In this document: positions 6,616 to 41,358 of the stretch, one piece after another | How the letters are laid out: every line of letters starts with the position of its first letter | How positions within the stretch are numbered: the first letter of the stretch is position 1 | Source of the DNA: a virus | Taxonomy: Duplodnaviria; Heunggongvirae; Uroviricota; Caudoviricetes | Strand: one strand, 5' to 3' | DNA length: 41,358 nt | IMG/VR virus record: IMGVR_UViG_2740892232_000004 | The notes under the pieces: generated by a model | What the model saw: the letters and a program-made list of their open reading frames with translations, nothing else | Database searches by the model: none | Told to the model about the DNA's origin: nothing | Made by a program: the position numbers and the translations under genes

Positions 6616-6632
6616 ATTACCTTTCAGGTAAT
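6616..6632. repeat. Palindromic operator-like motif ATTACCT-TTC-AGGTAAT (copy 1)
   Basis: Perfect 7-3-7 inverted repeat in the intergenic region between tailspike start and the LexA-box gene; an ATTACCT half-site also at 6566-6572. Confidence 0.55.
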
Positions 6633-6668: not shown

Positions 6669-6688
6669 TACTGTATAAATATACAGTT
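6669..6688 (+). promoter_or_regulatory. LexA (SOS) box
   Basis: TACTGTATAAATATACAGTT = CTGT-N8-ACAG with AT-rich spacer, overlapping a TATAAA-like -10; about 20 nt upstream of the ATG at 6708. Confidence 0.7.
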
Positions 6689-6707: not shown

Positions 6708-6965
6708 ATGCAGCAGTATCACTATCCACTGGAAGACGGATTTACCGAAAGGATTCACACGCCGGGAGGCGTCAGGTCACTGGTGGAGGGATCGCACTTG
6801 ATGAAATTACTCCGGGATCTCGATAAGGATGGATTTAATGTCGATGGCCCACTTGCCGAACTGACTGCACTGATTAACTACGTCACCAGCTCACAGATGT
6901 CTATGCAGGATCTGCAAACACATCTCGACTATTGTGCCGAACAATTACGAAAACAAACCCGGTAA
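6708..6965 (+). CDS. Small SOS-regulated antirepressor candidate (stand-alone copy of the BRO-N protein C-terminal domain)
   Basis: ATG with GGAGAAG RBS; residues ~9-80 align to the C-terminal 75 aa of the 8114-8824 protein (shared …PLxxG…IH[ST]PxGV…LMxLL…DG…AELT…DxQTH…Y). Confidence 0.6.
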   Translation: MQQYHYPLEDGFTERIHTPGGVRSLVEGSHLMKLLRDLDKDGFNVDGPLAELTALINYVTSSQMSMQDLQTHLDYCAEQLRKQTR

Positions 6966-6987
6966 ATTTAAAGGCCGCAAGAGCGGC

Positions 6988-7716: not shown

Positions 7717-7735
7717 TGCTTTTCCTCACAATAAC

Positions 7736-7752
7736 ATTACCTTAAAGGTAAT
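7736..7752. repeat. Palindromic motif ATTACCT-TAA-AGGTAAT (copy 2)
   Basis: Perfect inverted repeat 19 nt upstream of the ATG of the 6988-7716 gene. Confidence 0.55.
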
Positions 7753-7828
7753 ATCTTGCTTTCAGGTGATCAAGCGTTAAACGCCACCAACCAAATACGG
7801 TTGATTTTGATATTTCTCCGCGTTTATC

Positions 7829-7845
7829 ATTACCTTTGCGGTAAA
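7829..7845. repeat. Palindromic motif ATTACCT-TTG-CGGTAAA (copy 3, degenerate right arm)
   Basis: TTACC-N5-GGTAA core conserved; TTGATA -35-like hexamer about 17 bp upstream. Confidence 0.45.
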
Positions 7846-7935
7846 TTTACATCGCACTCCTCTTGTGCCATAGTAATCGGGCACTGGCAAAATCCAGTGC
7901 CGGGATTGGCGTCCCGGGTTACTAAGTGGCGCATA

Positions 7936-7957
7936 CCACGCCAGACGTGGTTTTTTT
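7936..7957 (+). terminator. Rho-independent terminator-like hairpin in a noncoding region
   Basis: CCACG-CCAGA-CGTGG followed by T7; preceded by a 9-bp stem-loop (GGCACTGG…CCAGTGCC) at about 7879-7902. Confidence 0.45.
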
Positions 7958-8113
7958 ATGCGTTAAGCACAGCTATATCCGAATTATGGTGGGCTGGGCA
8001 GGGGTCCGAAAGGACGCCGGTACCACTTAGGCCGGTACGCCAACCTTGTCCAGTTCACCACCAGTAATTGGCGTTGCGGTGGTGATTAAAATCACTAAGT
8101 GGAGATAACCACC

Positions 8114-8824
8114 ATGGCTAATGCTCAAACTTCCATCTTCAAATTTGAATCTGTTAACCCTATCCGTTCCATCATTATCGATGGCCAACCATGGTTTGTA
8201 GCCCAAGACGTTTGTAGTGCGCTGCGTATCCAAAACGTCACCCAAGCACTTGAAAAACTGGATGATGATGAAAGGTCTATGTTCAACATAGGGCATGAAC
8301 ATCGTGCAATTTTTGACAGCCGAGTAAAAGAGATCAACATCATCTCCGAGTCAGGCCTCTACACACTGATCCTCCGCTGCCGCGACGCAGTGACACCAGG
8401 CACTATCCCCTACCGCTTTCGTAAATGGGTTACGGGTGAGGTTCTTCCTCAGATCCGCCGCACCGGAAGCTACATTAAAAACTCGCTCCCGCAGGAAGAA
8501 CGCATAAAGATGGTTGCCGACCAGGTGGCCAACGCCACGGCGTCAGCAGTAATGCAGGCGATGAAGATAGAGAACAAAACCTACAGCGCCCCACTGAATC
8601 CCGGCTACCGCAGCCTGATTCATTCGCCGTCTGGTGTTCTCGGCCTGACGGAGAACTCACTGCTGATGAATCTGCTGAACCAGTTACAGGACGACGGGCA
8701 CGACGTATCGGGCGCGGCGGCGGAGCTGACCACCATGTTCTGCTACATCGTCGGTGTGAGCAAATGCCTGCGTGATATCCAGACCCACGCGGAATACATC
8801 AACGACAAGGCAGGGTTCTTCTGA
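8114..8824 (+). CDS. BRO-N domain antirepressor-like protein
   Basis: ATG with GGAG RBS; N-terminal BRO-N-like segment (FVAQDVCSAL…ISESGLYTLILR…FRKWV); C-terminal domain homologous to the 6708-6965 product. Confidence 0.75.
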   Translation: MANAQTSIFKFESVNPIRSIIIDGQPWFVAQDVCSALRIQNVTQALEKLDDDERSMFNIGHEHRAIFDSRVKEINIISESGLYTLILRCRDAVTPGTIPYRFRKWVTGEVLPQIRRTGSYIKNSLPQEERIKMVADQVANATASAVMQAMKIENKTYSAPLNPGYRSLIHSPSGVLGLTENSLLMNLLNQLQDDGHDVSGAAAELTTMFCYIVGVSKCLRDIQTHAEYINDKAGFF

Positions 8825-8895
8825 CGGGCGGTGGCACAGGGATGTGCCTTTAAATAATTCTGTACAGATTGCAGACTGTGGGTGAATAGCGTACT

Positions 8896-8912
8896 ATTAC
8901 CTTAAAGGTAAA
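8896..8912. repeat. Palindromic motif ATTACCT-TAA-AGGTAAA (copy 4)
   Basis: Directly abuts the AGGAGG RBS of the 8924 ORF. Confidence 0.5.
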
Positions 8913-8923
8913 GGAGGCGCGAT

Positions 8924-9091: not shown

Positions 9092-9111
9092 AAGCACATC
9101 AGGAGTTTTCC

Positions 9112-9552
9112 TTGAAGTTTAACATTAGAATATCTAATAGTTTTCTACATGGGGAAAGCAACACCCCTTTCGCTGTAGACGGACCTTTCCTTACTGATGA
9201 TGAAATAAAAATCATACAAAGTTTTTTAGAGGATGTTGCCAATGGAAGGGCGCTTGTTGGAAAAAACAAGCCCTCGTGGGTTGATGATAACCATGATAAA
9301 ATTCCCGGCTCAGACAATTATGAGCAAGAGAATTATTGGCATTATCATTGTGGGCCAACATGGTATCCAAACACATTTAAGAATTATACCATTAACTTAA
9401 ATTTCAACCCTGGCGGAAGGCATTCTAATGAATGCATTCATTATGCAAAAAATGATAATGAAATTGTCATTGTTGGATTTTCAAGAGAACACATACCTTT
9501 CCTTTCATCAGATGGAAACAACAATCCGCTTTTTAATGATGAAGAAGAATAG
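9112..9552 (+). CDS. AT-rich moron protein (146 aa from proposed TTG start), unknown function
   Basis: Visibly lower GC than flanks; AGGAG 6 nt before TTG; no in-frame ATG except the overlapping one at 8971; N/D-rich product with single CGP and C-H pairs. Confidence 0.5.
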   Translation: MKFNIRISNSFLHGESNTPFAVDGPFLTDDEIKIIQSFLEDVANGRALVGKNKPSWVDDNHDKIPGSDNYEQENYWHYHCGPTWYPNTFKNYTINLNFNPGGRHSNECIHYAKNDNEIVIVGFSREHIPFLSSDGNNNPLFNDEEE

Positions 9553-9573
9553 CCCGCGCTGCGGGCTTTTTTG
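9551..9573 (+). terminator. Rho-independent terminator of the moron cassette
   Basis: AGCCCGC-GCT-GCGGGCT followed by T6. Confidence 0.7.
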
Positions 9574-9644
9574 TGGACGAAACAAAAGTCAGTGCTACAC
9601 TCATTGACGCCACATTGAGGTGGCTTATAGATGGAAATTTCACA

Positions 9645-9806
9645 ATGAAAAAAGCATTTGCTGCACTGTTCGTTTTGTTGTCTCTGGTAGCTTCAACTCA
9701 GGCCTTTGCCGGTCGTTGTCAGCACGACAGCGACACTGCTGCTGACGGCTCCCGCTGCGGTGGGCGTTCTGCGGACTCCCGTCCGGGCGGCGGTGGCATT
9801 CGTTAA
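9645..9806 (+). CDS. Small predicted secreted protein (53 aa)
   Basis: Signal-peptide-like N-terminus (MKKAFAALFVLLSLVASTQAFA), Gly-rich mature part with 2 Cys; TTGACG-16-TATAGA promoter-like elements upstream. Confidence 0.3.
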   Translation: MKKAFAALFVLLSLVASTQAFAGRCQHDSDTAADGSRCGGRSADSRPGGGGIR

Positions 9807-9829
9807 AAACAAGGCCGCGAAAGCGGCCT
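9800..9829 (-). terminator. Minus-strand terminator at the end of the virion operon
   Basis: GGCCGC-GAAA-GCGGCC hairpin followed on the minus strand by TTGTTTTT. Confidence 0.5.
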
Positions 9830-9841
9830 GTGACATGTCAC
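9830..9841. repeat. 12-bp perfect palindrome GTGACATGTCAC (copy 1 of 3)
   Basis: Exact copies also at 27026-27037 and 29291-29302. Confidence 0.6.
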
Positions 9842-9848
9842 GCTCACG

Positions 9849-9989
9849 TTATGACAAGCCTATGTACCCTGCTACACCAGATAATATCATAATAACTGCA
9901 ACAGCAAATTCGCCATCGTCAATGATACATTTACGGTTCATAACGCCAAGTGCAACAAGCGCAAACACAACAAGAATAAAAGCAATCAT
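9849..9989 (-). CDS. Small membrane protein (46 aa) at the end of the virion operon
   Basis: AAGGA RBS then ATG immediately after the stop of the 824-aa virion protein; two hydrophobic segments; followed by the minus-strand terminator. Confidence 0.4.
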   Translation of the reverse strand: MIAFILVVFALVALGVMNRKCIIDDGEFAVAVIMILSGVAGYIGLS

Positions 9990-17807: not shown

Positions 17808-20278
17808 CAGAACCCACCAACAGTAAGGCGAGGAATAACGGCAAGAACAGACAGCGGCAACGGATCAAGCTGACGGATTTTTACACGTCCGTTTTTGCCC
17901 CAGTTACTGTCCAGTTTCACTTCTACTTTTCCGGTAGCATCATCAACAGGATCATCGTAGAACTCGAATTCACGCTGTGGATATTCGTACCATTTACCGC
18001 CGGGCGTAGTCGCCCAGATGCCGCGACTGGCATTCACAACCAGAGTAACGGACGGGATCACCTGTTTTTTGTCCAGCAGCGTTTCCTGTCCGTTAATGTT
18101 GATATCCAGTGTTTCGAATTCAGCAGTTATTGGCAGGCCGATGTGCACTACAGCCCCCGGTGATTCCAGCGTGACGGCACATCCGGAAACCACTTTCTGT
18201 GGTTCCACGTTCGCATCAGAGAGAATGTTTACGGTCTGGCCTTCAAGATGAGACAGGCCTCCAAATGTCCGGCGCGCCATCTGCCAGTTCGTGGTGGCCA
18301 CATTCCTGAGGGATGGCGGGACGTTCCTGTTAGCACGAACCACTACAGCGGTATTGCTGGTTACAGAAATAATGTCGCAACGTAATTCTTTTGACACCTC
18401 ATCGCCAGTATCAGGATCAGTTCCGGTATAAGGGAACTGTAGTTGCGCGCCGACATCACTACTGGTGAAGTACGCACCACCAGAAACACTGATTGTATAT
18501 TCCGCGCGGTAATCCCATTCGCCAGAACCACCAGTGATGATCATCGTTCTGTCAGACGTATTTCTTCCATCATAGCTAAGGCCAGAATCAACAAAGAAAG
18601 CATCTTCATCGCTGGTAAATAAACGGCTGGACAGTCGCTCGATGTATCTCACTGTTTGCCCGTTAACGGTTCGGTTAACGACGAAATACACCGCATCTTC
18701 ATTGCCTTCGCTGATACTGCATGTGCTTTCATATTTTCCGGTACTGGATTGTGGTGCCCATGCAAAAACCTGCTGATCACGCAAATAGGTCATCACCAGT
18801 AATTTACCGTCATCACGGATGCAGAAGGCGCTGGAGTAAGGGACTATTGAGAAGCACCAGTCAACAATGCTGTGCTTCTGAAAAAGATGATTGGCAAGGA
18901 TAGTAAGGTCGTTCCCCTGATAGCCGTCAACATCGAATGAGTAGGCCAGATCACGGACAACACTGCCTTTCTCCTGGACGAACAGAGCAATATTCGCCAC
19001 GGCAATTGGTGGGACATTGCTCGAGCCATTTGATCCCTGAGAGCTGAATGCAAATGATGATGGGGTAAGCACTTTGTTCTGGTCGCCAGTGATGACGTAC
19101 TCACCTCCGGAAGTCAGCGCCACCAGCGAACCAACATCAATCAGGTGACGGATCTCATTAACCTGACGCCCGGCATAGGTGTAGATAATTCTGTCGTCAT
19201 CCTGCGTAGGATTGCTTTTGCCAAAATCCTTATAATCCCCAGTACGGCTGGCCCAGATAGTCTGAGGGAACGCAGTCGATGCGGCGAAGTAAAGACGCTG
19301 TTGATAATAAACAACAGTGCCAGGATAACCATTAACACTGTTCCAGGCATATTTAGCCCATTTATAGCTGGCATTATCCTCGCCAACGACCTGCGAAGGG
19401 ATATAGGAAATCACCTCGGCAGTTGCAGTAGTGCCATTTGCAGCAGTGATACGGGCAATGCCAAAACCACTGTGCAGATACTCCCACTCAATGCCAGTAT
19501 CATCATCACCGGATCCGCCCCAGCCATCCCATGATGTGCCTTCTGTATGCGAAGGGCGCAAAGTACCTGTTTTGCCTGCTGTAACGGCGCGATAGTAGTT
19601 ACTGTCTGCACGGCGAATATCGCCAATCGACGTACTCTTACTGGTTTCCCATACAGGTACTGAATCCACTGCAGGCTGTTCCAGATAGAACAATTTGCCT
19701 ACCTGCTCCGCGCCAAAAATAGAGACGCTTGCCGTTAACGTAATTGTCCCGGTGCTGGCGCTGGCATAAACCGTCACTGACTCATCAATATTGATATCTT
19801 CAAATGGCCCGTTCTTCGTTACCACATCAACCAGTTGCCAGTTGTCATGCGCATAGCGACGCAACTCTTTCGGCGGGTATGCCGGATGAACAAGCGTAAG
19901 CACGTCTGCGCTTTGCGTGAATTTAATTCGGAACAGATCGGCTTCAGTATATGGCGTGGCAATTTCATAAATAACATTGCTGCTGTTCAGCACCAACGCA
20001 CCATCTTTGATAACGCGCATGTACTGGTGTCCGAACTCCAGAGCATAGGTCTGAACCGTCGAGAACTGGAACGGGATCAGGCGGCATTTCCGATTTGGGT
20101 ATTTGGCGGCACCGACAAAACGCGTACCAGGTCGATTCTCAACGCCGCCATACTGCCGCACGATAAAGTTATCGCACTTGCGCAATGCCACCTGGTACTT
20201 CGCCATGTCGATACGTCCGTACAACGACGGTCCAATCTCACCACCAGCAAAGCTGGGCTGGATCCAACTGATAGCCAT
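17807..20278 (-). CDS. Tail tubular protein B-like / tail hub protein
   Basis: 823 aa, follows the tail tubular A-like gene with overlapping stop/start; size and position as in T7-type tails. Confidence 0.65.
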   Translation of the reverse strand: MAISWIQPSFAGGEIGPSLYGRIDMAKYQVALRKCDNFIVRQYGGVENRPGTRFVGAAKYPNRKCRLIPFQFSTVQTYALEFGHQYMRVIKDGALVLNSSNVIYEIATPYTEADLFRIKFTQSADVLTLVHPAYPPKELRRYAHDNWQLVDVVTKNGPFEDINIDESVTVYASASTGTITLTASVSIFGAEQVGKLFYLEQPAVDSVPVWETSKSTSIGDIRRADSNYYRAVTAGKTGTLRPSHTEGTSWDGWGGSGDDDTGIEWEYLHSGFGIARITAANGTTATAEVISYIPSQVVGEDNASYKWAKYAWNSVNGYPGTVVYYQQRLYFAASTAFPQTIWASRTGDYKDFGKSNPTQDDDRIIYTYAGRQVNEIRHLIDVGSLVALTSGGEYVITGDQNKVLTPSSFAFSSQGSNGSSNVPPIAVANIALFVQEKGSVVRDLAYSFDVDGYQGNDLTILANHLFQKHSIVDWCFSIVPYSSAFCIRDDGKLLVMTYLRDQQVFAWAPQSSTGKYESTCSISEGNEDAVYFVVNRTVNGQTVRYIERLSSRLFTSDEDAFFVDSGLSYDGRNTSDRTMIITGGSGEWDYRAEYTISVSGGAYFTSSDVGAQLQFPYTGTDPDTGDEVSKELRCDIISVTSNTAVVVRANRNVPPSLRNVATTNWQMARRTFGGLSHLEGQTVNILSDANVEPQKVVSGCAVTLESPGAVVHIGLPITAEFETLDININGQETLLDKKQVIPSVTLVVNASRGIWATTPGGKWYEYPQREFEFYDDPVDDATGKVEVKLDSNWGKNGRVKIRQLDPLPLSVLAVIPRLTVGGF

Positions 20279-26073: not shown

Positions 26074-26090
26074 ATTACCTTTCAGGTAAC
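26074..26090. repeat. Palindromic motif ATTACCT-TTC-AGGTAAC (copy 5)
   Basis: Upstream of the portal operon; consensus TTGACA -35 hexamer on the plus strand 17 bp upstream of the left arm. Confidence 0.55.
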
Positions 26091-26401: not shown

Positions 26402-26478
26402 TCTCAGCGTTGTGGCATTAGCTCAGTTGGACAGAGCAACCGCCTTCTAAGCGGTTGGTCGCAGGTTCGAATCCTGCA
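26402..26478 (+). tRNA. tRNA-Arg (anticodon UCU)
   Basis: Folded by hand: 7-bp acceptor stem GUGGCAU/AUGCCAC, D-arm GCUC…GAGC, anticodon stem ACCGC/GCGGU with loop CUUCUAA, T-arm GCAGG-UUCGAAU-CCUGC, discriminator G, encoded CCA. Confidence 0.85.
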
Positions 26479-26531
26479 TGCCACGCCAGAATCACGCCTA
26501 AGGACCGTGATGCCAGAAGTTCCAGGTGCTT

Positions 26532-29177: not shown

Positions 29178-29196
29178 CATAACCACCGTGGTAATA

Positions 29197-29213
29197 GTTA
29201 CCGTTGTGGTAAT
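29197..29213. repeat. Palindromic motif GTTACCG-TTG-TGGTAAT (copy 6) within tandem ACTATTACCAC direct repeats
   Basis: TTACC-N5-GGTAA core just upstream of the terminase small-subunit start. Confidence 0.45.
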
Positions 29214-29221
29214 AGTACCAT

Positions 29222-29249
29222 GCAAAATAAAGCCGCCATAGTTGGCGGC
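29222..29249 (-). terminator. Minus-strand rho-independent terminator between the late promoter region and terminase genes
   Basis: GCCGCC-AACTAT-GGCGGC (minus-strand sense) followed by TTTATTTTG. Confidence 0.6.
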
Positions 29250-29290: not shown

Positions 29291-29302
29291 GTGACATGTC
29301 AC
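29291..29302. repeat. 12-bp perfect palindrome GTGACATGTCAC (copy 3 of 3)
   Basis: Lies between a TTAATA -35-like and a TAGATT -10-like hexamer on the minus strand, about 40 nt upstream of the terminator at 29222-29249. Confidence 0.6.
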
Positions 29303-29535
29303 ACTATTAATTTCGTTTCATGCCAGCCTTTAGTCACCCAGCATTGCGAGTCACCATTACACGGGCATGAATTAACTGGAACTCTCTCGCCGCACTTACC
29401 GCAACATTTTCTGCTGATCGATTTTATACGCCCGCGCACGCGTGCATCATCCTGGCGGATCAGTAACGCGATGTACTCGGCCATTTCATAGGGATCGCGA
29501 CCAGGGCGCCGGGCGGCGCAGTTCCGCGCCAGCAT
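29299..29535 (-). CDS. Small Cys-rich (zinc-finger-like) protein; candidate late-gene regulator
   Basis: ATG with AGGAG RBS (track ORF extends to a GTG at 29646); C-terminal CCGKCG…CPC…C cluster; last gene before the late promoter-like region. Confidence 0.45.
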   Translation of the reverse strand: MLARNCAARRPGRDPYEMAEYIALLIRQDDARVRGRIKSISRKCCGKCGERVPVNSCPCNGDSQCWVTKGWHETKLIV

Positions 29536-29629
29536 TTCCTGCTCCTGCTTATCCAGCACCAGTTCAATTTTGCGCTCACCGGCGGCGGACTGCCGAGCGC
29601 GCTGCGCGGCTTTGCGTTCTGCGGGGGAT

Positions 29630-29751
29630 TTAGCCACGAATCGCACTCCACGCCAGATTGATTAATGACTCCCAGGTAATATAAACCCGGATACCAGCAG
29701 CCAGGCCGAAACCAATCACCATGGCATAAAGCAGAGCGTTGCACTTGTTCA
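29630..29751 (-). CDS. Small hydrophobic membrane protein (40 aa)
   Basis: GGAGGTG RBS then ATG abutting the stop of the upstream gene; single TM helix. Confidence 0.4.
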
Positions 29752-33022: not shown

Positions 33023-33039
33023 TTTACCTCTAAGGTAAT
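33023..33039. repeat. Palindromic motif TTTACCT-CTA-AGGTAAT (copy 7)
   Basis: Two nt upstream of the 32676-33020 gene start codon. Confidence 0.55.
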
Positions 33040-33084
33040 TAAAAACCATATAAGACACGAAATCAATAGAGTTTAGAATATTTT

Positions 33085-33101
33085 GTTACCTTGTAGGTAA
33101 T
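33085..33101. repeat. Palindromic motif GTTACCT-TGT-AGGTAAT (copy 8)
   Basis: Between a weak terminator after the P-like gene (about 33111-33135) and copy 7. Confidence 0.55.
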
Positions 33102-33914: not shown

Positions 33915-34716
33915 CCCACACCCCTTCTATCCAGTCAGTGTTATTCCAGTCAAGCTCATCGCTTTTCCCGGCATTTTTTGATTTTCCCCTGATATGATTT
34001 ACGTGCCTGGCGAATTTTTGTTCCCACTGAACCTGCGTGAACACTTTGCCCTCAGCCATCCAGTAATCCCGGAATGCAGCAAGTTCAGCAGGTGTAAATT
34101 CCGGTTCCGGCAGGGCCGTTCCCCACAGCGCAGCACGCCGCCGAAAATCTGGCGACGGTAGCCAGCCATCTGTCATCGGAAATTTCCCGATGGGTTCACT
34201 CAGGCCATCCAGAAATTCAGGTTCTGCCACCTGCAACGGCGTACTGTTCGCTTCACTGGTCGGAGCACCCTCGCGCACGTGCGCTATGTGTGGGGTTTTA
34301 TATATATCTTCCTCTTCCTCTTCCTCTGGTAACTCCTTTTGTAACGCTGTTGGCGTTACTTTTTGCGTTACTCGTTTTCTATGCTCTGCCACTCTTCTAT
34401 TCGTAAGTGCACGTTTTTTCGATGATTCTCCATTATGTCGCTCAAAGTTTGGAAGAATTAGTTTGCCGTCATGATAAGCAAGCCATCCGACGCTAATGAG
34501 GGCGTCAGCAAATCCTGTAATAAAAGCGAGTCTATCAAGTACTCCTTTTGTAACGCTGCCAGCGTTACCGTCTATTGTTTGCTGGTCAGCCCATGCCCAT
34601 ATACGAACCAGCTTTCCAAGAACAGCATCTGGATCAATACCCAGAATTTCTGCTATCTGAAAAATTTCAGGTTTATCAGGAGTGATAACTTCAACCTTAA
34701 TCCAGCTGCTTGCCAT
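33886..34716 (-). CDS. Replication initiation protein O-like (replisome organiser)
   Basis: Upstream of and overlapping P; ATG with GAGGGG RBS (track ORF starts at GTG 34734); acidic EEEEEE linker. Confidence 0.6.
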   Translation of the reverse strand: MASSWIKVEVITPDKPEIFQIAEILGIDPDAVLGKLVRIWAWADQQTIDGNAGSVTKGVLDRLAFITGFADALISVGWLAYHDGKLILPNFERHNGESSKKRALTNRRVAEHRKRVTQKVTPTALQKELPEEEEEEDIYKTPHIAHVREGAPTSEANSTPLQVAEPEFLDGLSEPIGKFPMTDGWLPSPDFRRRAALWGTALPEPEFTPAELAAFRDYWMAEGKVFTQVQWEQKFARHVNHIRGKSKNAGKSDELDWNNTDWIEGVWDEINSRTSQ

Positions 34717-34891
34717 AGGTTTCCCCTCTTGCACTCTTTAGTGCACAAGCAAATTCATTACGATGGCGGTTGGCGCTATTCATTGCACATTCAACACATG
34801 TTCCGTTCAGAACATACCTTTCAGAGAGATGGCCGTGACGGCACCGCTTTCCTGTGAAATAGCGATTTAACCCGGCTTTTGCGGCCTCCAT
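34697..34891 (-). CDS. Small zinc-finger-like protein (65 aa), cII-position
   Basis: CRHGH…CVEC motif; lies between the cro-like and O-like genes; weak RBS. Confidence 0.4.
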   Translation of the reverse strand: MEAAKAGLNRYFTGKRCRHGHLSERYVLNGTCVECAMNSANRHRNEFACALKSARGETYGKQLD

Positions 34892-35057
34892 TCTGGTTAC
34901 TATCTTCAATTTTTCCGCCCCTTTTTGTTATTGATATTGGCTATTTTGCACAATTGGAAAATTTGATCAACCAGATTTGGTTTTTTATTACCCTTAAGGT
35001 GCGAATAGATATGAAAAGACCGCCGGATGGCGGTCTACAGAGGGTTGTGGCTGGATA

Positions 35058-35288
35058 TCATGAGTAGAAGAAGTATGCCAGTTCTGCTTTTGAGCGCAGC
35101 CATTGTCTTGTTTTACAGGCTTTAAAAAGCCCATTCATCAATACTTTACCTGGCATTTTGCGCTTGCCTGTTAAGTGAGTCTGGATATAGTGACTCGTCG
35201 TTCCGGCTTCCTGTGCGAAGGCTTCACGCTCATCCGGAGTAAGTGCAAGCCAGTGCTTTTTGAAATCGAAATGTCCGTTATCGCTCAT
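35058..35288 (-). CDS. Cro-like HTH regulator
   Basis: 76 aa, HTH-like segment, first gene of the replication operon, divergent from the CI-like gene. Confidence 0.6.
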   Translation of the reverse strand: MSDNGHFDFKKHWLALTPDEREAFAQEAGTTSHYIQTHLTGKRKMPGKVLMNGLFKACKTRQWLRSKAELAYFFYS

Positions 35289-35354
35289 AGCTATTGCCTG
35301 ATATTTATTTCAGATAATAAATATTCACCCATAAGGTAACAAAAATCAAGGATA

Positions 35355-35388
35355 GTTACCTATGAGGTGCATTTACCTGTTGGGTAAT
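35355..35388. promoter_or_regulatory. Immunity-region operator cluster (degenerate TTACC-N5-GGTAA copies)
   Basis: GTTACCT-ATG-AGGTGCA and TTTACCT-GTT-GGGTAAT, plus an AGGTAAC half-site at 35334-35340, between divergent cro-like and cI-like starts. Confidence 0.5.
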
Positions 35389-35442
35389 ATTGCTTTAAAT
35401 TGAATCATCTACTGATTCATATATGAGGCGATTTTCCAGAAA

Positions 35443-36027
35443 ATGAAAAGTATCCAGGACGTCCGCAGGCAAAATCTCAACGACTTGATCGACCGTGAAT
35501 TCAATGGTGTTCAGACGCGGATGGCAGAAAAACTTGGAACTCAGGCAAATCTGGTAAACCGCTGGGCTCTTGGCAAGAAGGTTATCGGCGACCAGGTTGC
35601 ACGAAAAATTGAAGCTGCCGCCAATAAACCCCGTAACTGGCTTGATATTGATCGTTCGCTTTCTCAGGAGGGTTTTCAGCCTGTCGGCCCGAGCGATATA
35701 GGTCAGCTGGCGGCTCACAACCTGGAACGCTGGATGAGCGAAAGCCGCGACCTTTCAACACAGGGAAAACTTCACCGCGCATCCGGCGTCGCCCAGGTGA
35801 CAATCAGCCGCCTGTTAAACAATGAGGTCAGCGTTTCCATTTCCACCCTGGAGAATGTTGCATCCGCATTCGGGCGTCACGGATATGAACTACTGATTCA
35901 CCCGCACGACCCTGCGACTATCAACTATGACCGCTCACGCTACGCATTGTTACCCGAAACCGAGAAAGCAAAGATCGAAAGTTACATTGAATTTGTCATC
36001 AACCAGAACGAAAAAAGCAAACAATAA
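35443..36027 (+). CDS. CI-like repressor with two HTH-like segments and no LexA-type (S24) autocleavage domain
   Basis: 194 aa; HTH-like regions around residues 25-45 and 105-135; no GDSM / Ser-Lys dyad motif; no obvious SD upstream of ATG. Confidence 0.65.
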   Translation: MKSIQDVRRQNLNDLIDREFNGVQTRMAEKLGTQANLVNRWALGKKVIGDQVARKIEAAANKPRNWLDIDRSLSQEGFQPVGPSDIGQLAAHNLERWMSESRDLSTQGKLHRASGVAQVTISRLLNNEVSVSISTLENVASAFGRHGYELLIHPHDPATINYDRSRYALLPETEKAKIESYIEFVINQNEKSKQ

Positions 36028-36048
36028 AACTATAGTTTTCAGTAAGTA

Positions 36049-36072
36049 AGCCGCCTCATGGCGGCTTTTTTA
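36049..36072 (+). terminator. Rho-independent terminator after the cI-like gene
   Basis: AGCCGCC-TCAT-GGCGGCT followed by T6. Confidence 0.7.
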
Positions 36073-36083
36073 TTGCCAGATAG

Positions 36084-36100
36084 ATTACCTTACGGGTAAT
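36084..36100. repeat. Palindromic motif ATTACCT-TAC-GGGTAAT (copy 9)
   Basis: Upstream of the early recombination operon. Confidence 0.55.
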
Positions 36101-36145
36101 TTTTTTAACTCATATCTATTGACACCAAACCAAATAAGCATAATT

Positions 36146-36162
36146 ATTACCCCAACGGTAAC
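36146..36162. repeat. Palindromic motif ATTACCC-CAA-CGGTAAC (copy 10, degenerate)
   Basis: TTACC-N5-GGTAA core; extra AGGTAAC half-site at 36169-36175 overlapping the RBS of the 36181 ORF. Confidence 0.45.
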
Positions 36163-36180
36163 AGACCGAGGTAACAAGTT

Positions 36181-36333
36181 ATGCAGTGGAAAATCATCAA
36201 CGGTTGGTACTGCGTTACTGCATGCGGATTCATGAGCTGGAAGTTCCGCACCTTACAGGAAGGCATTAAGTGGGCTTTCGTCAGCAAAGAAGCTCGCGAT
36301 GTAGCCAACGATAACGAGATATGGGAGGGCTGA
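36181..36333 (+). CDS. Small protein (50 aa), first gene of the early recombination operon
   Basis: GAGGT RBS; W/C-containing; below track cutoff. Confidence 0.4.
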   Translation: MQWKIINGWYCVTACGFMSWKFRTLQEGIKWAFVSKEARDVANDNEIWEG

Positions 36334-36335
36334 TA

Positions 36336-36635
36336 ATGAACGTTAATCAGCAGAAAAATCTTCAAAAAATCATGCTGGCATTCGACAAGGACTACCGCCT
36401 GTCAGAACAGCTATATGACCGACAAGTTGAACTGATTGAGAGCATCCGACTTCATCAACTGTCCTCAACTTTCGACGTTGTAACAGGCAAAGGCGTTCGT
36501 CAGGAAGTGCTGGAGGCTGCTAAAGACAGCCCTGAGTTCGAAGAACTGATGGATGCCTACCGGCGCGAGGCAATGGCAATTATAGCGCGCTGGGATCTGG
36601 CGGATCAGCTTGATGGGCAGAGGGACGCGGCATGA
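36336..36635 (+). CDS. Hypothetical early protein (99 aa)
   Basis: GGGAGGG RBS 6 nt before ATG; precedes the exonuclease gene. Confidence 0.55.
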   Translation: MNVNQQKNLQKIMLAFDKDYRLSEQLYDRQVELIESIRLHQLSSTFDVVTGKGVRQEVLEAAKDSPEFEELMDAYRREAMAIIARWDLADQLDGQRDAA

Positions 36636-37531
36636 TGCGGAACGCTGGAATCATGGATAGAACAAAATACATCGGAGGAAGCGATGTTGCAGGGATTCTT
36701 GGAATTAGCCCATGGCGCACCCCGCTTGAGGTTTATCTGGATAAGGTCCAGCCACGTGTCAAACCAGTAGACCCAAGCAAGCAGAAAGTTTTCACGCGTG
36801 GCCAGCGTATGGAGCCATACGTAATAGACCTGCTTTCTGAGGAAACAGGGATGGAAATCGTTCATCGCGGAAACCGCTATATCCACCGTGATTACGATTT
36901 TATTGCAGCTGAGATCGATGCAGAAGCAGCGTCAGGCGAGAACATTGAGATCAAAACAGTTAGTCCGTTCAAAGCCAAAGAATGGGGAGAAATCCAGACA
37001 GATGCAATTCCTGTGCATTACACGGCCCAGGCCATGCACGGGTTGATGGTTACAAACAAACAGGTATGCGTTTTCGGTGTGCTTATCGGTGGCGACGACT
37101 TCCGAATCTATCGGGTTGAGCGTGATGAAGAAACTATCCAGGCGATCTTAGAAAAAGAAATCGCTTTCTGGGACCGAGTGAAAAATCTTAACCCGCCGGA
37201 AGCTACCAGCGTAAGCGATGTATCGCTGATGTTTGAGAAAGATGCCGGGACAAGTATCGAGGCTGACGGAAAGGCACTCGCACTATTCAACGATCTACGA
37301 GACATGAAATCACGCAGAAAATCACTGGAAGAAGAAATAGCTATATCAGAAGAGAAGCTGAAGATGTACATGCAAGAGCACTCAGTCCTGACCCTGGACG
37401 GAAAGCCGCTCTGCACATGGAAATCTCAGATCAGCAACAGATTCGACCAGAAGCTATTCCAGTCAGTACACCCTGAGTTATTCGAAAAATTCAAAACAAC
37501 AACGACACAACGCGTCTTCAGAATGAAGTAA
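36632..37531 (+). CDS. YqaJ-like (lambda Exo-type) recombination exonuclease
   Basis: Motifs GGSDVAGILG, …EIK…; adjacent to recT; ATGA overlap with upstream gene. Confidence 0.8.
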   Translation: MMRNAGIMDRTKYIGGSDVAGILGISPWRTPLEVYLDKVQPRVKPVDPSKQKVFTRGQRMEPYVIDLLSEETGMEIVHRGNRYIHRDYDFIAAEIDAEAASGENIEIKTVSPFKAKEWGEIQTDAIPVHYTAQAMHGLMVTNKQVCVFGVLIGGDDFRIYRVERDEETIQAILEKEIAFWDRVKNLNPPEATSVSDVSLMFEKDAGTSIEADGKALALFNDLRDMKSRRKSLEEEIAISEEKLKMYMQEHSVLTLDGKPLCTWKSQISNRFDQKLFQSVHPELFEKFKTTTTQRVFRMK

Positions 37532-37540
37532 GGAGAAAAA

Positions 37541-38563
37541 ATGTCTATCAATGCACTTAAGGCAGCGGCTACCGGTAACCAAGTTGCACATCATAATGAG
37601 AAACCAACAACTCTGGCCGGACTTCTGGCAGACCCAAAAATTAAAGCTCAGATGGCTTTGGCACTTCCAAAGCACATGACAGCAGACCGTCTGGCGCGCA
37701 TAGCAACCACAGAGATCAGAAAGGTTCCAAAACTTGCATCATGCGACCAAGCCAGCTTCCTGGGGGCAATTATGCAATGTGCCCAATTGGGTCTTGAACC
37801 AGGCGGAGCTCTTGGACACGCTTACCTGATACCGTTCGACAAACGCCAGAAAGTAAATGGAAGATGGGAAACCGTATCTACAGAAGCACAGCTGATTATC
37901 GGCTATCGCGGAATGATTGACCTTGCCCGCCGCTCTGGGCAGATCCTGAGTATCTCGGCTCGTACCGTACATACAAACGACAAATTCAGCTACTCATACG
38001 GCCTGGAAGAAACGCTCGAGCATTTACCTTGCGAAACAGGTGACCGCGGAGAATTAACGCACGTTTACGCCGTTGCACGACTGAAAGATGGCGGAGTCCA
38101 ATTTGAAGTTATGAGCCGGGCAGACGTTGAGAAAGTTCGTGCACTGAGCAAAGCCGGTAGCAGTGGCCCATGGGTTGATCACTTCGATGAGATGGCTAAA
38201 AAAACAGTAATTCGCCGACTGTTCAAATATCTTCCTGTTTCTATTGAAATGCAGAAGGCTGTTGTTATGGATGAGCGCGCTGAAGCTGGACTTAGCCAAG
38301 ATAACGCAGCTGTTATCACTGGTGAATATTCCGTAGTTGACGATGAGCGTCAACACCTGTCGCCAATTTCAGATTCAGAACGAGAAGAAGCTCGAGAATA
38401 TATCATCGCGATACTTAATAGCCTGGATCCATCTGCTGAAGATGCAAAAACGATGTTCAAGCGCGCTGAAAATGAAATTAACACCATGGCTGAAAAGCTC
38501 GGTGATGAATATCACCAAAAATTCATGATGACGCTTAACGATATGCGTCCAGAATTCGAGTAA
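37541..38563 (+). CDS. recT: RecT-family single-strand annealing protein
   Basis: Blocks ALPKHMTADRLARIATTEIRKVP, IIGYRGMIDLARRSGQI, THVYAVARLKDGG, IRRLFKYLPVSIE match RecT as I recall it. Confidence 0.85.
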   Translation: MSINALKAAATGNQVAHHNEKPTTLAGLLADPKIKAQMALALPKHMTADRLARIATTEIRKVPKLASCDQASFLGAIMQCAQLGLEPGGALGHAYLIPFDKRQKVNGRWETVSTEAQLIIGYRGMIDLARRSGQILSISARTVHTNDKFSYSYGLEETLEHLPCETGDRGELTHVYAVARLKDGGVQFEVMSRADVEKVRALSKAGSSGPWVDHFDEMAKKTVIRRLFKYLPVSIEMQKAVVMDERAEAGLSQDNAAVITGEYSVVDDERQHLSPISDSEREEAREYIIAILNSLDPSAEDAKTMFKRAENEINTMAEKLGDEYHQKFMMTLNDMRPEFE

Positions 38564-38612
38564 CCACCACCGCGGCGCCACGTGCGCCGCACTGCAACCA
38601 AGAGAGGTATTC

Positions 38613-38861
38613 ATGAAAGGTGCATTAGGTAAGAAAGAACTCCTGGCGGTGGTGCCACTGTCATGGAGCACTATCGACCGTATGGAGCGCGCAGGGGAAT
38701 TTCCTAAACGCTGGTATATCACCGATAAACGCTGCGCATGGAACCGTGATGAAGTTGAGCGTTGGCTTGATGAACGTCAGGCAGCAAGCCCGGCAGAGTT
38801 CCAGGGTAAAAAGCCTCCTGTTCAGCAACGTGTATATCGTCCCGTGAGCAACGCTGCATGA
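38613..38861 (+). CDS. AlpA/excisionase-like small DNA-binding protein
   Basis: 82 aa; …LSWSTIDRMERAGEFPKRW…WNRDEVERWL pattern typical of AlpA/Xis family. Confidence 0.6.
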   Translation: MKGALGKKELLAVVPLSWSTIDRMERAGEFPKRWYITDKRCAWNRDEVERWLDERQAASPAEFQGKKPPVQQRVYRPVSNAA

Positions 38862-38970
38862 GTGCGCTGCTAAGGCACTGGAGCAAATGGTCAGGATGGT
38901 ACTTATTCCTGGCCTCTGTTTCAGCATGGCTTTATCTGCTGGCATTAATTTTCAGAGAGGGTTGGATTAA

Positions 38971-39270
38971 GTGAGAAAGTTAAGCCGACTTGAAAAATAT
39001 CACATGAATAAGGTTTCAATGCGCAGTCCGTCAAAGATTGTCGCCGTTACTCCTGCGGCGATAGAGATCGAAAAACGCGCGATTGAAAGAGAGAAAAAAG
39101 GGCAATTCCGCATTGCCGCTCACCTTTGGCTTCAGTGTATGGATGTTGCTTCTGGTGATGTTGAACGTGCAAGGATCGCGGTTCGCAGGGACCAATGTAT
39201 CACAAAAGGTAACGGCCTTCGCCGTGGCGACTATAGCGGCATAGGATGTTGTGGGGTGGTTTATGACTAA
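38971..39270 (+). CDS. Small regulator-like protein (possible PerC-family)
   Basis: …FRIAAHLWLQCMDVASGDVERARIAVRRDQC resembles PerC-like proteins from memory; start uncertain (GTG 38971 or ATG 39004). Confidence 0.4.
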   Translation: MRKLSRLEKYHMNKVSMRSPSKIVAVTPAAIEIEKRAIEREKKGQFRIAAHLWLQCMDVASGDVERARIAVRRDQCITKGNGLRRGDYSGIGCCGVVYD

Positions 39271-39913
39271 GAAATACACACTAATCTATGCAGATCCACC
39301 CTGGGTATACCGGGACAAAGCCGCAGATGGTAATCGCGGTGCCGGTTTTAAATATCCGGTTATGAGTGTGCTGGATATCTGCCGCCTTCCTGTGTGGGAT
39401 TTGGCCGATGAAAACTGTCTGTTGGCCATGTGGTGGGTGCCAACACAACCACTCGAAGCACTAAAAGTTGTTGAAGCCTGGGGATTCCGTCTGATGACGA
39501 TGAAGGGCTTCACGTGGATAAAATGTGGTAGTCGACAACCAGATAAACTGGTTATGGGTATGGGACACATGACTCGCGCCAATAGTGAAGATTGCCTGTT
39601 TGCGGTAAAGGGAAAACTACCTACGCGCATTAATGCAGGGATCGTTCAGTCATTTACCGCACCGCGGCTTGAGCATTCAAGAAAGCCAGATATCGTTCGT
39701 GAAAAACTTGTGCAATTATTAGGCGATATTTCTCGCATTGAACTGTTCGCCCGCCAGACGTCTCATGGCTTTGATGTTTGGGGTAATCAGTGCGAAGACC
39801 CGGCAGTGCAACTACACCCTGGATACGCGTTGGATATTGGCGGATTAACAAATGCATTCAGCAATGCTCCGCTGTCACCAACAGACATCCAGGGGCGGGA
39901 GCGTGCTGCATGA
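39263..39913 (+). CDS. Orphan DNA N6-adenine methyltransferase (MT-A70-like)
   Basis: Catalytic DPPW motif in LIYADPPWVY near N-terminus; no adjacent restriction endonuclease gene. Confidence 0.75.
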   Translation: MTKKYTLIYADPPWVYRDKAADGNRGAGFKYPVMSVLDICRLPVWDLADENCLLAMWWVPTQPLEALKVVEAWGFRLMTMKGFTWIKCGSRQPDKLVMGMGHMTRANSEDCLFAVKGKLPTRINAGIVQSFTAPRLEHSRKPDIVREKLVQLLGDISRIELFARQTSHGFDVWGNQCEDPAVQLHPGYALDIGGLTNAFSNAPLSPTDIQGRERAA

Positions 39914-40107: not shown

Positions 40108-41358
40108 TTATTCCCCCGCCATCCACTTCTCAAACTTCGACGGGGAGAACGGAATCAGATCCGTATGCTCCCCGTCAATCCATGAATCAATCATATCGGC
40201 CCACTGCTGCAACATGTAGGCGCGCTGTCTGGCGTATTCCGCTTTGTTATATACGGCGCGCACACCTTTCTGCTCATGTGCCAGAGCCTTTTCAATCCAG
40301 TCTGAAGGATAACCAGCCTCATGCAACAACGTACTGGCTGTACGGCGCATATCATGTACAGTGAAGTCCTGAATATGCTCACCATCTTCATTTATTATTT
40401 TCACCGTTCTGTCGATCAGAGAGTTCAGCGCGGCATTAGATAATGGCTTCCGGAAATTGTAACGACCAGGAACCAGATATTCACTTCCACCAGCGCACAT
40501 CTGCAACCCGACCAATATATCCTGTGCCTGTTTAGGCAGGTAAATAACGTGCGCCCGGCTTCCCTTCATGCGGTCTGGAGGAATTGTCCATGTCCATTTT
40601 TTAAAATCTATTTCATCCCACGTTGCATTGGTGAATTCGCCCTTACGAACCATAGTGATAAGCACCAGTTTTAAAGCCATTTTCATAGTGCCCATAGCAC
40701 CAATGGCATCCAGCGTGCGGAAGAACAGGCCAATTTCTTCTGGTGCCAGTGTTCGCTCTCGTGGTTTAAATATGGCGATAGACGAAGGTTTAATGTCAGC
40801 CGCAGGATTAAACAAACCATGACCACGGTCATTGGCGTGACGGTATACGCTACTGATGATCTCCCTGGCCTGCACTGCTGTTGCCCGGCCACCGCGTTCG
40901 ACAATCCGGTCACACAAATCACGAACCATCGATGTGGTAATTTCAGCCATCATTTTATTGCCAAGAACCGGAAGTATGTCACGGTCGATCACCGCCTGTT
41001 TCATTGCGCGGGTACTGTCAGCCAGGATGACGTGTTTCATATAACTGTCGGTATGTACCGCAAACGTCTCGGCACCACGAATCTTTTTGATACCGTCACG
41101 TTTAGCCGCAGCCGGTGACTGGCCTGCTTTAAGCAGCTTCTTTGCAGCAATCAGTTCTTCTCGCGCTTCTGCCAGGCTGATACCGTCACGCCCATACTGC
41201 CCGATTACCAGTGTTTCGCGGCGACCGTTGATACGGTAGTCATAGCGAAACGAGACCGTGCCTGACGTAAGCACAGCTACATACAGCCCGTCACGATCGG
41301 AGACCTTGTACAGTTTGTCCTGCGGCTTGAGGTTTTTTAATTTTGTATCGGTAAGCAC
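40108..41358 (-). CDS. Tyrosine integrase with N-terminal arm-binding domain; 5' end beyond window
   Basis: N-terminal …LTDTKLKNLKP…LYKVSDRDGLYVAV… and C-terminal catalytic region (…HDMRRTAS…; LAHE…); ORF runs to the window edge. Confidence 0.85.
   Translation of the reverse strand: MLTDTKLKNLKPQDKLYKVSDRDGLYVAVLTSGTVSFRYDYRINGRRETLVIGQYGRDGISLAEAREELIAAKKLLKAGQSPAAAKRDGIKKIRGAETFAVHTDSYMKHVILADSTRAMKQAVIDRDILPVLGNKMMAEITTSMVRDLCDRIVERGGRATAVQAREIISSVYRHANDRGHGLFNPAADIKPSSIAIFKPRERTLAPEEIGLFFRTLDAIGAMGTMKMALKLVLITMVRKGEFTNATWDEIDFKKWTWTIPPDRMKGSRAHVIYLPKQAQDILVGLQMCAGGSEYLVPGRYNFRKPLSNAALNSLIDRTVKIINEDGEHIQDFTVHDMRRTASTLLHEAGYPSDWIEKALAHEQKGVRAVYNKAEYARQRAYMLQQWADMIDSWIDGEHTDLIPFSPSKFEKWMAGE

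Follow-up and report, generated by a model that had tools for sequence, protein, structure and literature searches.

The closest described system is that of SPC32H, an epsilon15-like Salmonella phage (PDB 5D50, 5D4Z), whose Rep-Ant lytic switch is reportedly described by Kim & Ryu 2013 (J Virol 87:11775) and Kim et al. 2016 (PNAS 113:E2480); Kim & Ryu are also said to have found its Ant to be structurally distinct. According to two further sources, SPC32H uses a LexA-controlled Ant in place of repressor cleavage (PMC7380047), and its Rep is a tetramer that is split by tetrameric Ant (PMC9638917). In ZX5, a phage 98% identical to the one studied here, overexpression of Rep lowered holin and endolysin mRNA by 99.97-99.99%, while overexpression of Ant, which counteracts Rep, lowered the titre of the prophage (lysogen) about 1,000-fold (PMC9782041).

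The immunity region of lambda has the order cro, OR1-3, cI, (rexAB), OL1-3/PL, N and gam-bet-exo, with cI and the recombination genes on the same strand. Terminators in lambda and in HK022 are overcome by antitermination. The textbook case of a leaderless mRNA is the lambda cI transcript from PRM (PMC10491246).

We analysed a stretch of 41,358 nucleotides, called the window below. Judged by its sequence, it is a Uetakevirus prophage of E. coli with the epsilon15/phiV10 genome type. Its DNA was 99.7% identical to one E. coli prophage and, where 34600-36700 was compared, 97-98% identical to phiV10 (DQ126339), TL-2011b (JQ011317) and vB_EcoP_ZX5 (MW722083); epsilon15 (AY150271.2) was compared as well. 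The prophage is common in E. coli, being present in 561 of 5,426 complete genomes. Our reading is that 35058-36180 is very probably the immunity switch of this prophage, built like that of lambda with N-dependent antitermination and RecA-dependent repressor cleavage taken away. This is ordinary repressor/operator control and is already known, since the switch has been characterised in the sister phage SPC32H. In the phiV10 record both terminators, p41 and p40, the latter as a two-HTH repressor, are already annotated. The phiV10 region did not differ substantively from the window, in which exo and RecT are separate genes while one fused recET is annotated in phiV10.

Relatives for footprinting were gathered by tblastn on phage records and by nine homologue look-ups, which gave 17 diverse lineages. 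A profile search of viral contigs with the Rep alignment returned 80 near-identical loci, of no use in footprinting, and a search of genome contigs with a single Rep protein returned 2 loci only. The features identified are listed in the table.

Table. Genes and predicted regulatory elements of the window, in order of position
Feature	Coordinates	Strand	Description
Operator between tailspike gene and ant	6616..6632	.	epsilon15 equivalent 19895-19911
Predicted LexA (SOS) box before ant	6669..6688	+	TACTGTATAAATATACAGTT; 20 nt before ant ATG
ant, small antirepressor	6708..6965	+	~86 aa; PDB 5D50_E, E 4.1e-47
Second antirepressor module	7736..8824	+	operators 7736-7752 and 7829-7845; isrK and C4 antisense RNAs; 236-aa Ant
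Operator before 55-aa ORF (8924-9091)	8896..8912	.	centred on predicted start
Operator upstream of portal operon	26074..26090	.	epsilon15 equivalent 2931-2947
Operator pair, centres 18 bp apart	29179..29213	.	between terminator 29232-29249 and small terminase gene; epsilon15 equivalent 12/30
Second copy of PL design	33023..33101	-	operator, 18 nt, TTGATT, 17 nt, TTTAAT overlapping second operator; centres 0 and -62
Degenerate operator just after cro terminator	34987..35003	.	~59 bp upstream of conserved promoter-like TTGATC-16-CAAAAT facing replication genes
Intrinsic terminator directly 3' of cro-like gene	35017..35036	-	RNA fold -15 kcal/mol, z = -5.1; annotated in phiV10
cro-like gene	35058..35288	-	76 aa; first gene of rightward lytic unit; PHROG 35 'transcriptional repressor', E 5.6e-13
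PR-like promoter of cro-like gene	35314..35342	-	TTGTTA-17-TATTAT, 9/12 matches; O1 inside spacer
Predicted operator O1	35324..35340	.	17-bp palindrome TTCACCCATAAGGTAAC
Predicted operator O2	35355..35371	.	17-bp palindrome GTTACCTATGAGGTGCA; centre -80 from rep ATG, conserved
Predicted operator O3	35372..35388	.	17-bp palindrome TTTACCTGTTGGGTAAT; left half is -35-like TTTACC of candidate rep promoter
Candidate rep promoter	35372..35400	+	TTTACC (35372-35377), 17 bp, TTAAAT (35395-35400); predicted start ~35407, leader ~35 nt
rep, repressor gene	35443..36027	+	194 aa; two-domain HTH; SPC32H Rep homologue
Intrinsic terminator after rep	36048..36073	+	hairpin 36048-36067, 8-bp G+C stem, U6 tract
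Predicted operator OL2	36084..36100	.	exact palindrome; centre -62 from predicted PL start
PL-like promoter of left operon	36119..36147	+	TTGACA-17-AATTAT; 10/12 matches; 10.9 bits
Predicted operator OL1	36146..36162	.	exact palindrome; overlaps last 2 nt of -10, centred on predicted start
Left operon	36181..39913	+	50-aa and 99-aa ORFs, YqaJ exonuclease, RecT, AlpA-like regulator, PerC-like activator, MT-A70 methylase
Left-operon ORFs	36181-36333; 36336-36635; 36632-37531; 37541-38563	+	third, YqaJ exonuclease; fourth, RecT

The preliminary description held that the layout of this region differs from that of lambda, which was mostly wrong. As in lambda, the repressor and cro genes are divergent with a tripartite operator of 17-bp sites, the repressor gene is without a Shine-Dalgarno sequence, and a second operator set and a leftward promoter, which lie past the repressor gene and share its strand, would drive the recombination/excision genes. 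The differences from lambda lie in other respects. The window has no rexAB, and homology searches found neither an N protein nor nut sites. Its Rep is without the S24 domain, and inactivation by an antirepressor rather than by cleavage is predicted. The two OL sites stand 62 bp apart and bracket the promoter, whereas lambda has three in tandem; the distance from O3 to the rep ATG is 54 nt, compared with 10 nt in lambda; int is on the opposite strand; and operators are found genome-wide, also before replication, late and antirepressor genes.

Rep matched the SPC32H Rep structure (PDB 5D50_A) over its full length, with residues 1-190 aligned to 2-197 (E 3.5e-42). The identity between the two proteins is only ~43%, which indicates a different allele. 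Pfam recognised HTH_3 only, and neither Pfam nor PDB homology revealed an S24 peptidase (autocleavage) domain in Rep. It thus has the build of the SPC32H-type repressor, which is S24-free and ~195 aa long and in which an N-terminal domain binds DNA while a C-terminal HTH-like domain serves oligomerisation and Ant binding. Its N-terminus, MKSI, was invariant in 26 homologues. SPC32H and the window further share the gene order (cro-like gene, three operators, rep, OL/PL, exo operon), identical operator half-sites, and a LexA box before an ant gene whose products are ~88% identical. In SPC32H, OL has three sites and rep is not followed by a canonical terminator; the window encodes an additional, larger Ant downstream of isrK and C4 RNAs.

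The cro-like gene corresponds to p41 of phiV10 and gp39 of epsilon15. That it diverges from the cI-like gene with palindromes in between was seen correctly from the start, and the palindromes are the three 17-bp copies O1, O2 and O3. Their centres lie at -111/-80/-63 from the rep ATG across the 17 lineages, that of O1 keeping its place within 2 bp in 16 of them. With 11.0 bits, the PR-like promoter exceeds the 99.9th percentile for the window. Rep is expected to bind the 17-bp ATTACC-N5-GGTAAT palindromes and would occupy O1, within the spacer of the cro-like promoter, along with O2 and O3. As O3 overlaps the probable rep promoter, autoregulation is possible. An inverted repeat at 35401-35419 (TGAATCA-N5-TGATTCA), considered as a site for Cro or a second regulator or as a leader hairpin, has only its right arm conserved, and the predicted rep leader was unstructured in RNA folding. 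Two plus-strand promoter-like sites were rejected as PRE analogues: the one at 35034-35061 loses its conservation in Tyrion, and the one at 35164-35191 sits in conserved coding sequence, so that its conservation is uninformative.

The strong terminator noticed after the cI-like gene was confirmed, with an RNA fold of -21.1 kcal/mol (z = -6.7 against shuffles), and would end the rep transcript. It is kept in 13 of 17 relatives; epsilon15, SPC32H and BUCT711 have no canonical terminator there, which indicates that it is inessential to the design. Past it, as had also been described, two more palindromes (OL2 and OL1) precede a co-directional exo/recT operon, and we found that they flank a strong PL-like promoter. 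All 16 relatives that have this module, with Rep identity down to 42%, keep the -35 TTGAC(A/T), the -10 RATTAT overlapping an operator and the 62-bp spacing, and across lineages the OL spacing is 62-63 bp. The recombination/excision operon therefore appears to be a separate unit under the same operator family, with its own operator-flanked promoter directly downstream of the rep terminator, as the preliminary description had proposed. With one operator centred on the PL start and a partner 62 bp upstream, we propose that bound Rep shuts PL in the lysogen. The SPC32H Rep tetramer has four DNA-binding domains, and looping between operator pairs may be involved.

Induction would proceed through the LexA-controlled small antirepressor, which would bind Rep without cleaving it. 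The LexA box before ant (TACTGTATAAATATACAGTT) was the sole match in the window, with 0 expected by chance. A non-cleavable repressor inactivated by an SOS-induced antirepressor is likewise found in the Gifsy and Fels-2 prophages and with Tum of coliphage 186 (PMC3121763; PMC7380047), although their Ant proteins do not belong to the family found here. The second module resembles immI of P1/P7 (c4 antisense RNA, icd, ant) and isrK-anrP of Gifsy-1 in that isrK and C4 matches lie directly upstream of the Ant gene (PMC7380047). It differs from them in being flanked by Rep operators and in the C-terminus of its 236-aa Ant, an SPC32H-Ant-like domain resembling the small Ant. The antirepressor region at 6965-9985 is mosaic relative to the phiV10-type phages.

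The Rep operator is not confined to the switch. Exact copies of TTACC-N5-GGTAA numbered 11 in the window, compared with 0 in 100 shuffles, and are spread over ~9 intergenic regions. Epsilon15 has 11 exact and 4 near-exact operators (0.68 expected), mostly at positions equivalent to those of the window, and most of the equivalent sites are annotated as 'protein_bind repressor' in AY150271.2; the dispersed sites are thus already known for epsilon15. Positions with a palindrome in both phages are upstream of terS and of the portal gene, in the interval from ant to the tailspike gene, at OL and past the replication genes; the pair spacings of 62 bp and 18 bp are likewise shared. The epsilon15 pair 35907/35969, for example, is equivalent to 33023-33101 and has the same 62-bp distance. 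Epsilon15 differs in carrying additional sites, upstream of the lysis genes and close to int. Four sites that it does possess, three in the rep-gp39 interval and one after gp39, are left unannotated in its record. The degenerate site at 34987 is present in epsilon15, SPC32H, BUCT711 and BUCT554. The 33023-33101 element stands after the P gene and before a resolvase-like gene.

Beyond the switch, the operator recurs at ~7 further intergenic regions. The arrangement seen at PL, with the operator lying partly over a predicted -10, is repeated at 33023-33101, 7829-7845 and 8896-8912, and three operator locations (34987, the 33023-33101 pair and the 29179-29213 pair) follow terminators. Each early and late operon therefore appears to be repressed on its own rather than reached by antitermination. 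At 34987, 26074, 29179-29213 and 6616 the placement over a predicted promoter is unconvincing, and these sites may loop or act as roadblocks.

Two alternatives concern the transcripts on either side of the repressor gene. The cI-like gene had been called apparently leaderless, a label inferred from its missing Shine-Dalgarno sequence. Absence of a Shine-Dalgarno sequence held in 17 of 17 lineages (anti-SD duplex of -1.9 kcal/mol over -16..-3 in the window; mean of the 17 relatives -0.24, whereas the first left-operon gene has -6.4), while the leaderless start did not fare as well. The candidate rep promoter was missed by a strict consensus scan, which found no plus-strand promoter 5' of rep, and was found by a PWM scan, which scored it 6-8 bits (99th percentile, 4.4). 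It is the best-scoring and sole conserved sigma-70-like site 5' of rep in 17 of 17 relatives, and its TT(A/T)AAT is the sole conserved non-operator block there; TTTACC would be conserved anyway, because it doubles as an operator half-site, and the -10-like hexamer usually has T instead of the critical A at -11. As this sole conserved element predicts a ~35-nt leader, our best guess from the sequence is that the rep mRNA would carry such a leader without a Shine-Dalgarno sequence. A truly leaderless mRNA, whose first nucleotide would be the A of the start codon at 35443 and for which lambda cI is the precedent, is less likely and still deserves some weight. It agrees with the missing Shine-Dalgarno sequence, with an A/T-rich stretch in which a weak -10-like GATTTT (TATTTT in Tyrion) stops 7 nt short of the ATG, and with an O3-to-ATG distance constant within 2 nt. 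Epsilon15 and SPC32H even have a good TACAAT (6.9 bits) just before the rep ATG, which fits a leaderless or near-leaderless start; it ends, however, only 4 nt before the A, where 6-7 is usual. Moreover, none of the ten best conserved promoter positions is compatible with a leaderless start, conservation immediately 5' of the ATG is poor, and 54 nt separate O3 from the ATG, against 10 nt from OR3 in lambda. The rep ATG is overlapped by a 7-codon upstream ORF (ATGAGGCGATTTTCCAGAAAATGA), which we rejected as a translational coupling device because only 4 of 17 lineages have it. Downstream of rep, a single read-through transcript into the recombination genes, with no promoter in 36073-36180 and the palindromes acting only as roadblocks, is highly improbable. 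It would accord with the missing canonical terminator in epsilon15, SPC32H and BUCT711 and with the third, further-downstream operator of these phages, which cannot occlude a promoter. But TTGAC(A/T)-17-RATTAT (10.9 bits) is invariant in 16 lineages whose flanks have diverged, the rep terminator is strong (-21 kcal/mol with a U6 tract), and every lysogen would then express AlpA-like/excision and recombination functions.

The other two alternatives concern how the remaining operons are reached. No N-like antiterminator had been noticed before, and our searches agree: neither Pfam nor PHROGs gave a match to the N or Q family among the genes scanned, the RefSeq annotation of the 99.7%-identical prophage lists none, and an Rfam scan of the window at gathering threshold found no put-like or other antitermination RNA, so N-like antitermination is probably absent. 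Terminators do stand directly behind the cro-like gene and the P gene, and the first two ORFs of the left operon (PHROG 898 and 856) are without known function. Nevertheless, an unrecognised antitermination factor that overcomes these terminators, be it a put-like RNA or a small protein (for instance the 50-aa or 99-aa product of the left operon), seems very unlikely to us, as N, Q and put were unmatched in Pfam, PHROGs and Rfam, both small proteins lack an arginine-rich N-terminus, and operator-bearing promoter-like elements follow each terminator. Somewhat less improbable, though still unlikely, is that the dispersed palindromes serve mainly as elongation blocks or loop anchors and that the lytic operons are read through in long units after induction. 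The stoperators of mycobacteriophage L5, which block elongation, are many and asymmetric, have a single orientation and lie within transcription units. Sites just past terminators or far from good predicted promoters (34987, 29179-29213, 26074 and the third OL of epsilon15) would suit such a role, as would the weak terminator with a 4-bp stem after the P gene. The sites of the window, in contrast, are palindromic, intergenic and found in both transcription orientations, and four of them (at PL, 33031, 7837 and 8904) share one register: each is centred on the predicted start and covers the two final bases of a predicted -10.

Separate repression of each operon can tentatively be extended to the genus. 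In Uetakevirus, terminator-bounded operons may take the place of the lambdoid antitermination cascade, with a fixed operator/-10/+1 register in at least four operons and half-sites that do not depend on the repressor allele; this proposal may well prove wrong. In at least four operons the last two -10 bases are the first two of a Rep operator centred on the predicted +1. Two of these, PL and 33023-33101, have a partner operator exactly 62 bp upstream, which we propose could be bridged by a Rep tetramer. Rep alleles with only 42% identity, from Escherichia, Salmonella, Klebsiella, Enterobacter, Citrobacter and Serratia, go with the same TTACC/GGTAA half-sites. We found no description of the fixed register or of an allele-independent operator in the accessible literature.

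As a discovery the locus has little weight, for the prophage is common in E. coli and the switch is known structurally and genetically in a sister phage. The analysis provides a useful correction, namely that the layout is no departure from lambda in the respects first named. It also yields, for phiV10-type phages, a map of promoters, operators and terminators that can be tested; phages of this type serve as reporter and biocontrol phages for O157. If the tentative proposal is true, immunity specificity in these phages may sit in the Rep-Ant pairing and not in operator recognition. The window would illustrate a temperate phage without an antiterminator, in which each operon has its own repressor-controlled promoter.

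In the region studied, the window showed 97–98% identity to the phages phiV10, TL-2011b and vB_EcoP_ZX5 and 99.7% identity to an E. coli SCU-125 prophage; of 5,426 complete E. coli genomes, 561 contain related sequence. The window is a prophage of the Uetakevirus (epsilon15/phiV10-like) type. In the record of phiV10, annotations already exist for the repressor, p40 ("two helix-turn-helix motifs"), for p41, which is cro-like, and for the two terminators; the system in question is well populated, annotated and partly characterised. The tailspike gene (3393–6512, minus strand) is annotated as an endosialidase (K1 capsule depolymerase) in a near-identical prophage, and O1:K1:H7 APEC strains host close relatives of the window prophage.

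The genes, palindromes, terminator and co-directional operon listed in the preliminary description were all confirmed in every particular.

Features of the immunity region and Rep operators elsewhere (window positions)
Feature	Position	Strand	Remarks
cro-like gene, 76 aa	35058–35288	−	in interval 35058–36180
Operators O1, O2, O3	35324–35340, 35355–35371, 35372–35388		17-bp palindromes ATTACC-N5-GGTAAT between cro-like gene and rep
Inverted repeat TGAATCA-N5-TGATTCA	35401–35419		between O3 and rep ATG; right arm ATTCA(Y) alone conserved among relatives
Repressor gene rep, 194 aa	35443–36027	+	
Intrinsic terminator	36048–36067 + U6 tract		3′ of rep; −21.1 kcal/mol, z = −6.7
OL2	36084–36100		exact palindrome, 3′ of rep terminator
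PL	36119–36147		sigma-70 promoter TTGACA-17-AATTAT
OL1	36146–36162		second exact palindrome
Left operon		same as rep	two small ORFs, YqaJ exonuclease, RecT, AlpA-like regulator, PerC-like activator, MT-A70 methylase
Integrase gene	40108–41358	opposite to rep and left operon	
Further exact operators	starts 6617, 7737, 7830, 8897, 26075, 29198, 33024, 33086		
Degenerate operators	starts 29180, 34988		
Operator locations			ant/tailspike gene interval; ahead of isrK/C4/second-Ant module; ahead of 55-aa ORF; ahead of portal operon; 3′ of terminator, ahead of terS; 3′ of P gene; 3′ of cro terminator

Where lambda has cII, as the first gene past the cro terminator, the window carries a gene (34697–34909, minus strand) for a 70-aa Cys-rich, zinc-finger-like protein of PHROG 1081. 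One relative, a Serratia prophage, has a DNA polymerase III theta-like gene (L092 1794–2060) that overlaps the end of rep and is probably co-transcribed with it; this gene sits where lambda has rexAB. The annotated Tyrion minus-strand gene gp39 (L002 4632–4844) overlaps the conserved OL/PL region and a conserved 50-aa ORF (MQWKII...), and is probably a mis-annotation.

It had been proposed that this layout differs from that of lambda. In the lambda record the order is cro, OR1–3, cI, rexA, rexB, OL3–1, nutL, N, ..., gam, bet, exo, xis, int, all on one strand from cI onward, and the lambda cI mRNA from PRM is leaderless (PMC10491246). Therefore, a leaderless cI, operators after cI and a co-directional recombination operon under the same operators are lambda's own layout, and the proposal fails on all three points. 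The window differs from lambda in other respects: it lacks rexAB, its repressor is inactivated via an antirepressor, its two OL sites, 62 bp apart, bracket the promoter, and its integrase gene is on the other strand. Neither N nor nut was found in it, as the preliminary description had stated for an N-like antiterminator.

We compared 17 lineages whose Rep proteins (the rep products) are 42–100% identical: the window, Tyrion, BUCT554, BUCT711, SPC32H, epsilon15 and eleven prophages or contigs. In all 16 lineages with the module, the −35 element TTGAC(A/T) of PL is invariant and the last two bases of the −10 element RATTAT are shared with OL1; the OL2–OL1 spacing is 62 bp, except in two of them, where it is 63 bp. 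PL scored 10.9 bits with a simple sigma-70 PWM (>99.9th percentile of the window), its predicted start coincides with the centre of OL1, and the centre of OL2 is at −62. A good Shine-Dalgarno sequence (−6.4 kcal/mol on average) precedes the first gene of the left operon. The rep terminator is kept in 13 of 17 lineages; in the epsilon15 group its place is taken by a hairpin of non-canonical type together with a third operator. It is very unlikely that the left-operon transcript arises by read-through alone. These sequence comparisons indicate that PL is a real, Rep-controlled internal promoter, and the suggestion that the recombination operon is an independent unit under the same operator family holds.

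On balance, the sequence data speak against a leaderless rep mRNA. The start codon is secure, because the MKSI N-terminus is invariant in 26 homologues, and no Shine-Dalgarno sequence was found for rep in any of the 17 lineages (anti-SD energy at −16 to −3 averaging −0.24 kcal/mol, none better than −3.5). The rep ATG lies 54 nt beyond O3, compared with 10 nt beyond OR3 for lambda cI, and the only conserved non-operator block in between is TT(A/T)AAT at 35395–35400. A spacer of 17 bp separates this block from TTTACC, which forms the left half of O3, and the combination is the top-scoring promoter in 17/17 lineages (6–8 bits; 99th percentile, 4.4). The predicted start is near 35407 and the predicted 36-nt leader is unstructured; O3, O2 and O1 would lie at about −28, −45 and −76, much as in lambda, with OR3 overlapping PRM and OR2 abutting it. 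On the other hand, the −35 of this candidate would be conserved anyway because it is an operator half-site, its −10 mostly lacks the A at −11, and in epsilon15 and SPC32H a TACAAT ends 4 nt before the rep ATG. A truly leaderless rep mRNA seems rather unlikely to us.

Rep aligned over its full length to SPC32H Rep (PDB 5D50_A, E 3.5e-42) and lacks an S24 autocleavage domain, and the small ORF at 6708–6965, ant, matched SPC32H Ant in that crystal structure (5D50_E, E 4.1e-47). The sole LexA box in the window (6669–6688) precedes ant, and a Rep operator (6616–6632) separates ant from the divergent tailspike gene. The repressor system is a known one. In SPC32H, the non-cleavable Rep is inactivated by SOS-induced Ant (PMC7380047); the DNA-binding form of Rep is a tetramer, and Ant, itself tetrameric, splits it into dimers (PMC9638917). 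The ZX5 repressor is 99.5% identical to that of the window; in that phage, overexpressing Rep reduced the holin and endolysin mRNA levels by 99.97–99.99%, and overexpressing Ant brought the prophage (lysogen) titre down about 1,000-fold (PMC9782041).

A second antirepressor module (7736–8824), mosaic relative to close relatives, has two Rep operators 93 bp apart, followed by isrK (7881–7957), a C4 antisense RNA (7982–8065) and a 236-aa Ant. Over its last 80 residues this larger Ant belongs to PHROG 450, the family of the small Ant, so that a single prophage codes for two differently controlled antirepressors that have one Rep-binding domain in common.

The half-sites TTACC/GGTAA were identical in 17/17 lineages, at Rep identities down to 42% (operator sites counted: 15 in the window, 15 in epsilon15), and the invariant Rep residues, NLxxRW included, cluster within the first 70 aa. 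From these sequences, diversification of operator specificity seems to be absent in this group, in contrast to lambdoid immunity regions.

No Q-like antiterminator was found in the window. The late-gene activator could be either of two candidate transcription activators, a PHROG 536 "transcriptional regulator" (29299–29646, minus strand), the last early gene before terS, or the PerC-like activator of the left operon (38971–39270, plus strand). The DnaT-like replication gene contains a 28-nt repeat twice (34332–34359 and 34541–34568, 209 bp apart), and each copy holds a 19-bp palindrome, GTAACGCTG-N-CAGCGTTAC; the arrangement resembles an iteron-bearing origin located within the initiator gene, as in lambda O.

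Copies of the Rep operator also lie elsewhere in the window. It contains 11 exact TTACCN5GGTAA sites, against none in 100 shuffles, and the operators outside the immunity region are all intergenic. Epsilon15, likewise, has 11 exact and four near-exact copies, mostly in equivalent places and with the same pair spacings of 62 bp and 18 bp; most are already labelled "protein_bind: repressor" in its GenBank record. The PL design is repeated base for base at 33023–33101 (operator, 18 nt, TTGATT, 17 nt, and TTTAAT overlapping a second operator), and predicted promoters at 7801–7830 and 8869–8897 have the −10/operator register of PL. A conserved TTGATC-16-CAAAAT facing the replication genes lies about 59 bp downstream of the operator that follows the cro terminator. 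Between the terminase and portal operons lies a tRNA gene (26412–26485, plus strand; tRNA-Arg in RefSeq), upstream of which a strong plus-strand promoter-like TTGACA-17-TACCTT overlaps the operator at 26074–26090. Some operator sites may just as well serve as roadblocks or in looping; the simplest reading is that in this phage family each operon would have its own Rep-controlled promoter, and an antiterminator would not be needed.
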